A DNA stretch of 64,000 nt from Escherichia coli (GTDB taxonomy: Bacteria > Pseudomonadota > Gammaproteobacteria > Enterobacterales > Enterobacteriaceae), in the NCBI RefSeq assembly GCF_041248615.1, contig NZ_CP158427.1. One strand, given 5' to 3'. This document shows, in pieces, positions 27,701 to 30,700 of the stretch (position 1 is its first letter; each line of letters begins with the position of its first letter). The position numbers were made by a program.

Positions 27701-30700
27701 CCTGCTGTCACCCTTTGACGTGGTGATATGGATGACGGATGGCTGGCCGCTGTATGAATCCCGCCTGAAGGGAAAGCTGCACGTAATCAGCAAGCGATAT
27801 ACGCAGCGAATTGAGCGGCATAACCTGAATCTGAGGCAGCACCTGGCACGGCTGGGACGGAAGTCGCTGTCGTTCTCAAAATCGGTGGAGCTGCATGACA
27901 AAGTCATCGGGCATTATCTGAACATAAAACACTATCAATAAGTTGGAGTCATTACCAAACAGGGATTATTTATTCTCTCAGGCGAGAATAAAATAGACGA
28001 AGAATGTTTCATTAATATAGTCCAAACGGCTGTCGCCATAAATAACATCGGTAGAGAATCTAATGGTTATATTTTAGTTGGTGTTTCCGATACCAAAGCT
28101 ACGGCAGACAGAGTTAAGACTTTATATGGTGTTACCCCTATTGAGTGCAATGGCTATTATATCAATGGAATTGATCATGAAGCTGTAATTCAATCAAAAA
28201 ACATAGATAATTACTTTCTGTTCATAAAACAAAAAATAGAATCATTTAATTTTAATGAGGCTTTGAAACAACAAATACTAAAAGATATTTCATTATGTTC
28301 ATATGAAGGACTGCATGTTTTAAAAATCGAAATAAAAAGTGTCGGAGAAGTCTGTCATTTTGAAAATAGGTATTATATAAGACAAGGAACAGCTACGCAT
28401 TTAATCACTGACGGTGAAGCAATTAGTAGTTTACACAGATTATATTACTCATAATTACTTAAGCACTATGAAGGTATCATACACCTTCATAGTGTACTTT
28501 TTTACTGCGCTTTGGGGCTAAATTGTTTTTGTGAATAGCCAGAATATCGTGGCTACGGCGGCAATGGAAATATATGATCTCTGCTGCCAGAGACTGGAGA
28601 TGTAATTGGGGGCAGTTTGGATATCGAAAATTATTGTACTATAAGGGGTCCGCTTGAGGGGGCCGCTTGGAAAACGGAAATTTTCCCACGCTAAGAGAAT
28701 TGAGTTGAACGAGTGGTTACATCTAGGCCAGCTAACTCACTGAACGTAAAGGCTGTACGAAATGTTCCGACCGTCCGATAACCATTTGGCTTACTTCCGT
28801 ACATTTCCTTGCGTAGATGTACAGAATTGTACGATTTCGGACACCAAAACTGCTGTTGTCCCGGTGCATGAAGCTACTTTCCGGGTTGGTGGTACTGACT
28901 TTGGTGTTCTTAACGACGACGTTTTCAACTCTGAAAATCGCCTCTCTGCACGGGGATTTTTACCCCCCCATAGAGCCGTCATATAAATTCAAATTATTAA
29001 CTTTGATGGTAGAATTATCTTAGGTTTGATAAAATTTTGAGCCGTCGCCGTTTACTTCACAGGATTCAATATAATGGCTAAATATACAGTTTGTGATTAC
29101 CAATAAACTATTAGAAATAATGGGAATGGTTGTGCCAATCTCTATCTGGAGGTCTTATTGCAGGGAACATCCACCCCATCGTTACACCAATACAGAATTG
29201 CCCCCGATACAAGACATCCAGACATTAACCTAATAAAAGCGCACCTTGACGAGGGCTTTCAGCAGGCAAAGTCTGAGGGATTAAAAGTAGAGATTTCAGA
29301 TTATAAAGAACGTCTTTACCTGTACATTAGAACACCTGGTAATAACCTAATGCAATATTCTGGTTGCAGAGAAAAATAATACAGTCGCGCTGGATACGCT
29401 GACATTGACGCAGTTATATGATTTTCTGGCGTTGGTCAGTAAACCAGCTGCAGCCAAAACGGTGTAGTCCCTGACACAGGCGCCGGTCATTCTGTTAACT
29501 CATCCACGTATGGGATGAACAGTTGTTTCAGTTTGAAACCAGGGATGTCAGACGGATTTTTGCTGGCGAGTACGAAATCCGTTACGAACTTAATGGCCAG
29601 ACTATTTATGTATTGCGCCTGTGACACACACGAGAAAACAGGTAGATTGTGTGTGAGGGCAACTTTAACATAGCCTGCAGGTGTTAATTCAGGAGCATTG
29701 TTATCAGACCAAATATTTTTCATTCCATTAAATAGTCTTGTAGGGGATAAAATGAATTACGATGAAATAACGAAAATCACTGCAGAACGTATTAGCGACT
29801 ACATGACTGAAGCGGTTAATACAGACTCTAAATCTGTTGCGGAAATGTTTCATAACGCTGCATGGGGAGTGCTATCATTGTGGTTTGAACTCGTCACAAA
29901 AATAGATCTGGATATACATAAAAAGAACAGGTATGCAAGTTATGATTTTAGAAGAAAAATCGAAATGCAGCATGAAGAGTTTCAGAAAATGACAGAGCGT
30001 GAGCAAGTGCCTTTATTGAAATTGCCTGAATAACAGAGACAGTGCAAACGATTATTTCATAATAACGATTATGTAATGACTGGTAAGAAAATAACTTGAT
30101 TGAGTTCCCTTTATCCAGCCTGATAGTGGATAAAGGGAACTCAATAATAATTGAATTAATTTATTAGCTTCATCGCATTTTTTTTGGTCTCTTCATCACT
30201 TTTTTGCTCTTGTTGTGAAGAGGATTGAGTGACTATTGAAGAATTAAAATCGGCCATCTCTTTTGGAAATAGCGATCTCAATATATTCACGATATCTGAA
30301 AATGTGGTTTCTTTCGTCAGCAGCTCACATAAAAGGAAAGGGGTCCGGGGATCTTGTCTGTATAAGGCCAGACCTGCCGTCAGTGCGGCCCGGTTAAGGC
30401 GGCTTCGTTCCCCTTGCGGGATACTGTCCAGTGTATCACAAACAATTTTATCTGTTTGATTTACATCTGGATTTAGTTTGAAGGCAATGGTTCTGCGCTT
30501 GTCCATCATTAATTACCTATGAGATACATACCGTTAACTAAATCATATTGAGAGTTATTGGTTTTGAAAAAACGTTCATCACGAATCTGTGTGTGTTTTT
30601 TTACTGCATCGCATATTAATTCTGCGCCACCGCCTATAACCATAACATGAGTATAACCAGAAAATTCATTGAGCGTATTTAATACACGTTGCTCAAGTTT

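Follow-up and report, generated by a model that had tools for sequence, protein, structure and literature searches.

The closest described relatives of the locus analysed here are the type II toxin-antitoxin modules of the ParD/ParE type, for example parDE of RK2, and the stb region of plasmid R100/NR1, in which stbAB (parMR) lies with the ORF recorded in Swiss-Prot as YPNR_ECOLX. That entry is named 'Uncharacterized 11.1 kDa protein', sources also label it 'Stability (Stb) locus of IncFII plasmid NR1', and public records assign the ORF no function. Both relatives are represented in the window, a 64,000-nucleotide stretch of the Escherichia coli contig NZ_CP158427.1. At locus 1 (8544-9490, minus strand), an RHH antitoxin gene (9206-9490) is followed by a ParE toxin gene (8931-9206), the antitoxin stop and toxin start overlapping by 1 nt at 9206, and then by a gene of 93 codons (8544-8825). 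In Pfam searches the 91-aa toxin matched ParE_toxin (PF05016, E = 2.3e-16, model positions 1-88 of 89) and the 94-aa antitoxin matched RHH_1 (E = 2e-10); the toxin also resembles, weakly, the PDB entry 6xrw ('Plasmid stabilisation system protein'). Locus 1 shares with the ParD/ParE type the antitoxin-then-toxin order, with a ParE-profile toxin and a small DNA-binding antitoxin immediately upstream in the same operon, and the plasmid-borne position beside a replicon; it differs by its conserved third gene, and its toxin-antitoxin action is predicted. The three-gene set is carried with identical spacing by eight other plasmids, the 93-aa gene lies 105 nt 3′ of the toxin gene in every allele sampled, and an intact RHH-ParE pair is found upstream of it in all eight sampled loci outside the R100 type.

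The second locus in the window is very probably a relic belonging to the R100-type IncFII backbone beside stbAB, in which a 4.44-kb replacement destroyed the ParE pair and which has met locus 1 through plasmid mosaicism. BLASTN and base-by-base alignment matched positions 8546-9170, where the genes are on the minus strand, to 30031-29405, where they are on the plus strand, over 627 columns with 92.2% identity and 2 gaps (47 mismatches, thus 49 differing columns), and the flanks of the two blocks are unlike. The preliminary description of a second, decayed copy of the RHH-ParE-93-aa module is therefore correct, as is its statement that the arrangement is not a simple inversion.

The ParE-family toxin pseudogene, delimited by alignment to the intact toxin gene, occupies 29405-29645 on the plus strand. 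It is truncated at its 5′ end, where the first 36 nt (codons 1-12) are gone, and it carries two in-frame stops, TAG at 29465-29467 where locus 1 reads CAA and TGA at 29621-29623 where it reads TGG, and between them an additional T at 29516 that causes a +1 frameshift. RefSeq PGAP labels it 'RelE/ParE family toxin; frameshifted; internal stop'. Homology to locus 1 ends at 29405, and BLASTN detected no trace of the antitoxin gene (9206-9490) in or near locus 2, which also lacks the toxin-antitoxin promoter. The in-frame stops and the missing antitoxin had both been noticed at the outset, and both observations hold. Having neither an intact toxin ORF nor a cognate antitoxin, locus 2 does nothing as a toxin-antitoxin system, and its sole live part is the 93-aa gene. 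The locus-2 lineage of the toxin remnant has accumulated 9 nonsynonymous or nonsense changes against 2 synonymous changes, a pattern indicating that the remnant, unlike the 93-aa gene, is not under purifying selection, although the contrast between the two in the ratio of nonsynonymous to synonymous changes is not significant alone (Fisher p = 0.10).

An exact-sequence look-up identified the intact 93-aa gene of locus 2 (29752-30033, plus strand) as that of YPNR_ECOLX, hence ypnR. It differs from the locus-1 copy at 19 of 279 nucleotides (93.2% identity) and its product at 9 of 93 residues (90.3% identity), in agreement with the roughly 90% first reported, and careful alignment revealed no disabling mutation. 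Pairwise dN/dS between the two paralogues is 0.18, and the locus-2 branch carries 6 nonsynonymous and 7 synonymous changes (binomial p = 0.005). Among seven R100-type sequences there were no variable sites in ypnR and 16 in the flanks. The substitution pattern indicates that ypnR is kept under purifying selection, and the early suggestion that the gene has been maintained while its module decayed is borne out.

YpnR belongs to a small family: an alignment of 26 homologues, the most distant at 59% identity, spans the full length and has 20 invariant columns, and only 76 cluster representatives are present among 1.84 billion proteins. The AlphaFold2 model is a three-helix bundle with a pLDDT of 95.5. 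Pfam, NCBIfam, PHROGs, PADLOC, a PDB sequence search, and Foldseek against PDB and AFDB50 matched it to no family or fold other than its own. Homologues of YpnR are encoded directly downstream, and on the same strand, of RHH/ParE genes in IncF and IncK plasmids, of Phd/ParE_toxin genes in Salmonella, of Phd/RelE-StbE-like genes in Dickeya, and of HigB/HTH_3 genes in Yersinia. We propose only tentatively, and with low confidence, that this three-helix-bundle family is functionally tied to toxin-antitoxin modules of the RelE/ParE superfamily. Since ypnR is selected in about 980 R100-type plasmids after the loss of its own pair, it could be a third component separable from the pair, perhaps one that modulates toxins of this superfamily, or the cellular target of these toxins, in trans.

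The surroundings of locus 2 are those of R100. Window positions 28400-30300 are 100% identical to R100, 902 plasmids cover at least 80% of this interval, the locus-2 stretch is unchanged in about 980 plasmids, and R100-type IncFII plasmids make up about 1.3% of sequenced plasmids. The order on the IncFII backbone is repA, an Rce1-like gene, pemIK, a GmrSD-like gene, the repeat that the preliminary description called R, a 101-aa ORF, the toxin remnant, the 93-aa gene, stbB, and parM, and the R100 annotation likewise runs from the 93-aa gene to stbB and parM. Locus 2 occupies the backbone segment that has the resistance region on one side and stbAB on the other; in this window pemIK lies outside the interval first described and is separated from the relic by resistance-region insertions. 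The partition operon flanking the relic on the minus strand consists of stbB/parR (30156-30509) and stbA/parM (30509-31471); the R100 annotation names a plasmid partitioning/stability protein and ParM, and the homologous contigs gave Pfam matches to Plasmid_stab_B and StbA_N/ParM_N. Between the convergent 93-aa gene and stbB, self-BLAST for palindromes found a 47-nt inverted repeat (30099-30145), which is probably a shared terminator. The junction of the 93-aa gene with stbB was found in 983 records, 976 of them at 99% identity or more.

On the other side of the toxin remnant lies a 541-bp segment (28864-29404, plus strand) specific to the R100 lineage, the rightmost part of the 4.44-kb DNA now standing in place of the antitoxin. 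It occurs in 989 plasmid records, all with the same context and nearly all with at least 95% identity, and no other relatives were found beyond these records; together with the junction between the 93-aa gene and stbB it defines what, from these distributions, is one clonal arrangement. Within the segment is the remnant of a 101-aa ORF (29074-29379, plus strand), in which a C>A change at 29105, shared by the window and R100, converts TCA to a premature TAA at 29104-29106. An intact version of this ORF is present at the same position in six IncFII contigs, and it had no match in Pfam, NCBIfam, PHROGs, or PADLOC. What had been described as an unrelated 73-aa ORF does exist, at 29158-29379, but it is the tail of this decayed 101-aa ORF in the replacing DNA. 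The cargo of that DNA comprises the Rce1-like gene, pemI and pemK, the GmrSD-like gene, the left 206 bp of a miniature element, and the 541-bp piece with the 101-aa ORF.

The miniature element accounts for repeat R. A direct repeat is indeed present in the same orientation at both loci (9805-10014 and 28654-28863, 90.5% identity), as had been reported; R proper begins at 28658, where a 38-bp terminal inverted repeat (28658-28695) opens, and a res-like interior comes next. The fragment at 28658-28863 (plus strand), truncated at 28863, corresponds with 99% identity to positions 1-206 of an IncHI2 plasmid copy that is complete at 286 bp. Complete copies, among them those in contigs L006 (6002-6287), L032, and L033, have two 38-bp terminal repeats of the Tn3-family type, with 29 of 38 bases identical to each other. 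The terminal repeat matches, at 35-36 of 38 bases and at 36 for the one in locus 2, the repeat that ends an intact Tn3-family tnpA in a Klebsiella michiganensis plasmid, and the interior aligns with the tnpA-tnpR intergenic region of that transposon with a Smith-Waterman score of 77, compared with 31 ± 4.8 (maximum 48) for shuffled sequence. The element has no coding capacity, TBLASTN found no similarity to Tn3-family transposase, and its length lies within the 50-500 bp of non-autonomous elements. On the evidence of its ends and interior, the 286-bp element is a Tn3-derived miniature element (TIME), fragments of which are present in about 6% of plasmids. The IncHI2 copy is bordered on both sides by a 5-bp target duplication, TGGTA; no duplication was found at the other six of the seven full copies or at either copy in the window. 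The locus-1 copy (9809-10188, plus strand), mapped by BLAST of the 286-bp element against the window, contains element positions 1-247 at 9809-10055 and 259-286 at 10161-10188, and is interrupted by a 105-bp insert (10056-10160) bearing another Tn3-type terminal repeat. Of its two terminal repeats, the left thus survives, and so do 28 bp at the outer end of the right; at locus 2 only the left survives. We considered whether R could be the 3′ end of a Tn3-family tnpA, because a minus-strand ORF ends in the terminal repeat; this was rejected, since TBLASTN with an intact transposase whose gene ends in that repeat was empty and the full copies show a second terminal repeat. Nothing in Rfam matched R or either locus as a known RNA, at gathering thresholds or up to E = 5. 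Repeat R is a fragment of this element and not, as the preliminary description had it, a component of the module, and its orientation therefore says nothing about the origin of the gene copies.

The replacement was delimited by comparing two contigs whose flanks are collinear and in the same orientation. Positions 828-1711 of contig L029 correspond to 1-891 of L012, and 2098-2732 of L029 to 5332-5974 of L012, so that 386 bp in the one stand replaced by 4,440 bp in the other. Many IncFII-family replicons have the order repA, ori flank, RHH antitoxin, ParE toxin, and 93-aa gene. In the R100 lineage, a single event would have exchanged the 386 bp for 4,440 bp of foreign DNA, so that the toxin-antitoxin promoter was lost along with the complete antitoxin gene and toxin codons 1-12. 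Such a loss would have been survivable, because the antitoxin and the start of the toxin disappeared together, and the headless toxin would then have drifted, acquiring its two stops and its frameshift. The downstream ypnR, kept by purifying selection, is presumably still expressed, by read-through or from a promoter-like site in the toxin remnant. On the repA side, the flanks of L029 and L012 have an identity of no more than 83%, which marks the replacement as old, and more than one event possibly lies behind it. An intact RHH-ParE pair directly next to stbB was found in none of 72,556 plasmids, so that only the collinear flank towards repA speaks for the ancestral state; past the 93-aa gene, locus 2 and the other alleles are homologous no further than the stop codon. 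Locus 1 is a different, intact allele, carried on a fragment of another FII-type replicon flank in the FIB/colicin region of this mosaic multi-replicon plasmid. Positions 9557-9808 (minus strand) are a piece of such a flank, as found downstream of IncFII-type repA genes; the piece has a terminator hairpin at its end and lies before the toxin-antitoxin promoter. It shares homology with the repA-RHH interval of L029 and with positions 1-891 of L012, and 45 nt of it recur in more than 5,000 plasmids, as a rule some 0.6 kb past repA. The two copies would then have met by plasmid mosaicism, not by duplication or inversion in situ.

That the two loci are a collapsed or duplicated repeat created by assembly is excluded, and nothing was found in its favor: the copies differ by 8%, their flanks differ, each is found on its own in hundreds to thousands of independent complete plasmids, and each recurs exactly in many such assemblies. 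It is also very improbable that a duplicate of locus 1, made within this plasmid and later inverted and decayed, gave rise to locus 2. Such an origin would account for the opposite orientation of gene blocks that are 92% identical, and for the presence of R within 1 kb of both, but R100 and hundreds of plasmids without locus 1 carry the locus-2 sequence at 100% identity, locus 1 as a whole occurs in only 2 records, and only about 73 of 2,577 plasmids have two copies of the 93-aa gene. The 8% divergence is, moreover, far above that of other repeats in the plasmid (the IS26 copies are 100% identical), and the repA flank of IncFII plasmids runs collinearly with locus 2. The descent of locus 2 from locus 1 in this plasmid, which the words 'second, inverted' copy implied, is not supported, given the identity to R100, the usual position downstream of repA, and the single replacement that explains the damage. 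That replacement alone leaves unexplained why in both places R is found less than 1 kb from the module, for which a rough estimate of the probability by chance in 64 kb is about 0.004, and this coincidence favors a reading in which the module travels with the TIME, either by transposition of a TIME-module-TIME unit or by recombination at the res-like site, in which case locus 2 would be its scrambled remnant. In three contigs (L007, L009, and L034) the module's downstream end directly adjoins a complete TIME, with the same junction as at 10189, and in the window it is the upstream end that adjoins a TIME, beyond which another unit begins; this is a truncated second unit (10189-10303, minus strand) of 71 nt of downstream sequence and the last 44 nt of the 93-aa gene, 97% identical to 8475-8589. 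Both junction types are those expected of a direct TIME-module-TIME array, the interior of the element is res-like, and for other TIMEs both TIME-bounded composite transposons and integration of circles by recombination between TIME copies have been described (PMC13367494). We nevertheless regard this reading as unlikely. Only one of the two junction types is common, that of the upstream end with the left TIME repeat being limited to 2 records, no complete TIME-module-TIME unit with target duplications was seen, and the general lack of duplications at full copies points the same way; on these grounds a composite transposon was rejected. The locus-2 TIME faces the other way, inside the 4.44-kb segment and 541 unrelated bp from the toxin remnant, and derivation by a single inversion from a TIME-module arrangement does not fit this spacer or the missing 71 nt downstream. 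The apparently sharp ends of the module are the ordinary end of a replicon flank: a 37-bp hairpin-containing direct repeat that could have bounded a mobile cassette occurs, mostly as a single copy, in more than 5,000 plasmids about 0.6 kb past an IncFII-type repA, as part of the ordinary flank, and the cassette 'ends' are the replicon-flank terminator.

A further alternative concerns the toxin remnant, which might be retained to serve the 93-aa gene as a promoter or 5′ leader and so be something other than pure debris. A candidate promoter-like site (29621-29648, plus strand; GTGACA, a 16-nt spacer, and TAGATT, with 9 of 12 matches in a consensus scan) falls in the last part of the remnant, some 100 nt before the gene, and the G>A change that makes the TGA stop also turns GTGGCA into GTGACA, improving the -35 hexamer; the change is specific to this lineage, with G in 9 of 9 other alleles. 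Lineage-specific changes are also sparser in the remnant, with 11 in 240 nt, than in the intergenic spacer, with 10 in 105 nt. Against this, the counts are small, promoter-like sites are not more frequent in the region than in shuffled sequence (9 compared with 6.6 ± 2.8), and the excess of nonsynonymous changes in the remnant fits neutral drift of a coding sequence, so we consider such a role doubtful.

Under the replacement model, the relic documents how the backbone of a widespread resistance plasmid lost one addiction module to a replacement that brought another, pemIK, and the puzzling repeat is the scar of a mobile element. The finding alone matters little: the locus is already known, RefSeq already marks the toxin pseudogene, and what is seen is ordinary plasmid decay at a long-known backbone and no new system. 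Two by-products may merit a specialist look, namely the res-bearing 286-bp Tn3-derived miniature element, which a recent catalogue of such elements does not include (the published table of TIME/MITE sequences contains no 14-16-mer of its interior), and the orphan YpnR family, which recurs behind RelE/ParE-type toxins and outlives them.

The element resembles TIMEs such as IS101 and TIME244, which likewise have Tn3-family ends, no coding capacity, and a res-like interior, but the interiors of TIME244 and IS101 are unrelated to it (about 55% global identity). The YacAB system of ColV/ColIa plasmids and Shigella pINV likewise places a small antitoxin and a ParE-superfamily toxin just past an IncFII repA, followed by a third gene (PMC3438092, PMC9455713). 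The module is not yacABC, however, because YacB is only 24% identical to the window toxin, the antitoxins have no significant similarity, and 'yacC' in the pS88 record encodes a 282-aa 3′-5′ exonuclease, unlike the 93-aa protein. The pemIK system of R100, of the PemK/MazF type, belongs to a toxin family unrelated to ParE, and its position in the replacing segment places one addiction module where another was lost. Compared with the ParD/ParE type, locus 2 is a copy with a pseudogenised toxin that is no longer a toxin-antitoxin system. Compared with the stb region of R100/NR1 there is no difference: locus 2 is the same locus, in which only PGAP flags the toxin pseudogene.

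A 93-aa gene lies twice in the window, once behind an intact ribbon-helix-helix (RHH) antitoxin-ParE toxin pair (locus 1) and once, as ypnR, in a decayed copy adjoining stbB and parM (locus 2; 29405-30033, + strand). Locus 1, on the - strand, encodes a 94-aa RHH protein (9206-9490; Pfam RHH_1, E = 2e-10), a 91-aa ParE toxin (8931-9206; PF05016, E = 2.3e-16), and a 93-aa protein (8544-8825, from the ORF listing). By BLASTN, 8546-9170 (- strand genes) and 30031-29405 (+ strand genes) are 92.2% identical over 627 columns, and the two copies of the repeat R found near the loci (9805-10014 and 28654-28863; repeat search and BLASTN) are in direct orientation with 90.5% identity. 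Base-by-base alignment to locus 1 placed the start of locus 2 homology 36 nt inside the toxin gene. The toxin remnant contains a TAG at 29465-29467, an extra T at 29516, and a TGA at 29621-29623, the 93-aa gene (29752-30033, + strand) is intact, and no trace of the antitoxin gene was found in locus 2. Between the 93-aa paralogues there are 19 differences in 279 nt and 9 in 93 residues. ORF listing, direct reading, repeat search, and BLASTN between the regions therefore confirmed the preliminary description of an inverted, antitoxin-less module copy accompanied by an R that is not inverted. A third module fragment, comprising the last 44 nt of the 93-aa gene and 71 nt downstream, was detected by repeat search and BLASTN at 10189-10303. 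Three IS26 copies in both orientations (19154-19976, 23303-24123, and 25479-26300) bound the resistance region between the loci and are 100% identical, whereas the module copies have diverged by 8%.

The window belongs to an IncF plasmid that is a mosaic with several replicons. The locus 1 region, which includes a RepFIB gene, a colicin M immunity gene and an afa operon, matches E. coli plasmid p14408_1 (IncFIA/FIB/FIC) with 100% identity. The 28400-30300 stretch is 100% identical to the IncFII plasmid R100 (NC_002134), and at least 80% of it is covered in 902 plasmid records. In R100, just as in the window, convergent stbB and parM come after the 93-aa gene. The locus 2 93-aa protein is an exact match to Swiss-Prot YPNR_ECOLX ("Uncharacterized 11.1 kDa protein"), also labelled by sources "Stability (Stb) locus of IncFII plasmid NR1", and in the RefSeq PGAP annotation the toxin remnant is flagged as pseudogenic ("frameshifted; internal stop"). 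Sequence, ORF, and pseudogene are thus all on public record, and locus 2 is an ordinary pseudogenised toxin-antitoxin relic, already annotated as such, in one of the best-known plasmid backbones. RefSeq treats the identical 93-aa gene inconsistently: in R100 (23788-24069) it is a normal 93-aa hypothetical protein, and in pFORC64.2 (L035 2613-2816) a pseudogene ("incomplete, missing C-terminus"). The observation made in the preliminary description was right and its interpretation partly so; what is mainly new here is the reconstruction of a single replacement event and the identification of R.

Elsewhere in the window, group II intron domains (Rfam) are found at 4125-4413, and a matching plasmid is annotated, in the counterpart of approximately 4460-6790, with split reverse-transcriptase ORFs followed by an IS3-family element; the region looks like a disrupted group II intron. 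Three copies of a ~640-nt repeat, 80-99% identical (35848-36489, 39170-39810, and 44566-45206), lie near the sok antisense RNA (43973-44149) in what looks like the conjugative leading region, and probably correspond to the single-strand initiation/promoter repeats known from F-like plasmids.

In R100-type contigs without the resistance-determinant insertion, the backbone order is repA, an Rce1-like gene, pemI/pemK, a GmrSD-like gene, R, a 101-aa ORF, the toxin remnant, the 93-aa gene, stbB, and parM. In all eight plasmids sampled outside the R100 type (IncF and IncK2/Z), the 93-aa gene stands at a fixed spacing behind an intact RHH-ParE pair, which is often directly downstream of an IncFII-family repA, as in the intact-module plasmid L029 (repA 1-879, RHH gene at 1778, ParE gene at 2062, 93-aa gene at 2443). 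The flanks of L029 align collinearly, without inversion, with those of the R100-type contig L012: L029 828-1711, with the repA end, ori flank, and terminator hairpin, is 83% identical to L012 1-891, and L029 2098-2732 is 91% identical to L012 5332-5974. Because of this collinearity, we infer that 4,440 bp took the place of 386 bp. The lost 386 bp would have comprised the toxin-antitoxin promoter, the antitoxin gene in full, and 36 nt from the start of the toxin gene. The right end of the incoming DNA would be R plus the 541-bp segment that separates it from the toxin remnant (28864-29404). The cell presumably survived because one event removed the antitoxin and the toxin start together.

The 541-bp segment was found in 989 plasmid records, always in the same context and nearly always with at least 95% identity. 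The 93-aa gene/stbB junction was found in 983 records, 976 of them with at least 99% identity, and these are the same set as the segment carriers, which argues that the arrangement arose once and spread with the backbone. No intact RHH-ParE pair next to stbB was found among 72,556 plasmids, so the ancestral state is deduced from the repA side only. The 73-aa ORF originally noted in the segment does exist, as only the tail of the 101-aa ORF (29074-29379). The latter has no match to any known family; it is intact in several other IncFII plasmids and carries a premature stop (TCA>TAA, 29104-29106) in R100 and the window.

The cargo found just after the terminator hairpin in the flank downstream of IncFII-type repA differs between plasmids: the RHH-ParE-93-aa module, YacAB with an exonuclease, the Rce1-like gene with pemIK and the GmrSD-like gene, or a colicin-related gene (for example, L012 from 892, L031 from 12624, L029 from 1712, and L036 at ~4300-4490). 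Maintenance modules appear to have been exchanged at this spot repeatedly. A sharp-ended cassette flanked by a 37-bp direct repeat was considered and rejected: the motif belongs to the usual sequence that follows IncFII-type repA genes and recurs in more than 5,000 plasmids.

The proposal that the 93-aa gene has been maintained was upheld. Between the paralogues, 10 differences are synonymous and 9 nonsynonymous, giving a pairwise dN/dS of 0.18 (Fisher p = 5e-4 versus neutrality). When changes in the locus 2 lineage were polarised with 8-9 intact alleles, those in the 93-aa gene were 6 nonsynonymous, 7 synonymous, and a TGA>TAA at the stop, a departure from the neutral expectation (binomial p = 0.005). 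The toxin remnant, with 11 substitutions (9 nonsynonymous/nonsense, 2 synonymous) and a frameshift, showed no departure (p = 0.76), and the 105-nt spacer had 10 substitutions. Direct contrast of remnant and gene is suggestive only (Fisher p = 0.10). Seven R100-type sequences vary at 16 columns over 1,561 bp, all of them outside the 93-aa gene. A promoter-like site at the end of the toxin remnant (29621-29648) might, judging from its sequence, drive the 93-aa gene; the region has no excess of promoter-like sites. The G>A that creates the TGA (TGG>TGA, 29621-29623) is specific to this lineage and also changes GTGGCA to GTGACA, a better -35 hexamer, and the position is G in 9/9 other alleles.

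The YpnR family is small (76 hits in a profile search of 1.84 billion cluster representatives) and confined to Enterobacterales plasmids, being present in 2,577 of 72,556 plasmid records, only ~73 of which have two copies. An alignment of 26 homologues, the most distant at 59% identity, spans the full length and shows strong conservation in the N-terminal half, and AlphaFold2 predicts a three-helix bundle (pLDDT 95.5). Outside the family, nothing informative about function was found in Pfam, NCBIfam, PHROGs, PADLOC, or PDB sequences, or by Foldseek against PDB and AFDB50. The genes of divergent homologues (34-72% identity) closely follow three other RelE/ParE-superfamily pairs on the same strand: Phd with ParE_toxin in Salmonella, Phd with a RelE/StbE-like protein in Dickeya, and HigB with HTH_3 on a Yersinia enterocolitica plasmid (sites L021 2576-3760, L022 1422-2606, L018 3205-4282, and L026 2805-3779). 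An extra small ORF sometimes intervenes. One E. coli homologue has no adjacent toxin-antitoxin pair. This recurrence is only a lead, and we think it improbable that YpnR acts as a separable partner to RelE/ParE-type modules.

Could the module be the yacABC of the literature (PMC3438092, PMC9455713)? This was rejected, since YacA/YacB of pS88 are a different family: the window toxin is 24% identical to YacB, the antitoxin has no identity to YacA, and the pS88 "yacC" is a 282-aa exonuclease unlike the 93-aa gene product.

The first 38 bp of R, GGGGGCCGCTTGGAAAACGGAAATTTTCCCACGCTAAG (28658-28695; locus 1 counterpart 9809-9846), share 36/38 bases with the terminal inverted repeat at the end of an intact Tn3-family transposase gene on a Klebsiella michiganensis plasmid. 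Alignment of R copies from unrelated IncHI2 (Salmonella), IncX5 (Pantoea), and IncF colicin plasmids defined a complete element of 286 bp with a second Tn3-type inverted repeat at the opposite end; the complete IncHI2 copy (L006 6002-6287) has the 5-bp duplication TGGTA on both sides. The interior encodes no transposase and aligns with the tnpA-tnpR intergenic (res) region of the K. michiganensis transposon (Smith-Waterman score 77; shuffled controls 31 +/- 4.8, maximum 48). These sequence features identify R as the left portion of a Tn3-derived inverted-repeat miniature element (TIME) with a res-like interior; TIMEs have been described before (PMC4133298, PMC13367494). As the scar of a mobile element, R has an orientation that does not depend on the adjoining genes. 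The locus 2 copy (28658-28863) is cut off after position 206, and GGGGTCCGCTTGA (28645-28657), just outside its left terminal repeat, is a 13-bp partial duplicate of the repeat's tip. The locus 1 copy (9809-10188) holds a 105-bp insert (10056-10160) in place of 11 bp within its right terminal repeat; the insert begins GGGG, terminates in another Tn3-type repeat, CTTAGCGTACGATTTTTTCCGTTTCGTGAGTTGACCCC, and looks like a nested or recombined second mini-element.

The element is complete in 736 plasmid records and present as fragments in 4,680 (~6% of plasmids). A TIME copy directly adjoins an HTH/RelE-ParE pair on a Shigella dysenteriae plasmid, another lies ~160 bp from a similar pair in Pantoea, and another ~600 bp from an HTH/HipA pair in IncHI2 (sites L033 1501-2384, L004 5001-6041, and L006 6002-8520). 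Further copies adjoin the RHH-ParE-93-aa module in IncF plasmids. A TIME-module-TIME composite is a possible partial explanation for R near both module copies, as the element adjoins the downstream end of the module in plasmid contigs L007, L009, and L034 and its upstream end in the window (9809); however, one of the two junction types is limited to 2 records, and no target duplications were seen for such a composite. The element matches no sequence tabulated in the 2026 catalogue (TIME244, IS101, MITESen1, IMU, MITEKpn1) and has no 14-16-mer in common with the catalogue's elements. Like IS101 and TIME244 it is a res-bearing TIME, but at only ~55% global identity it is unrelated to them in sequence.
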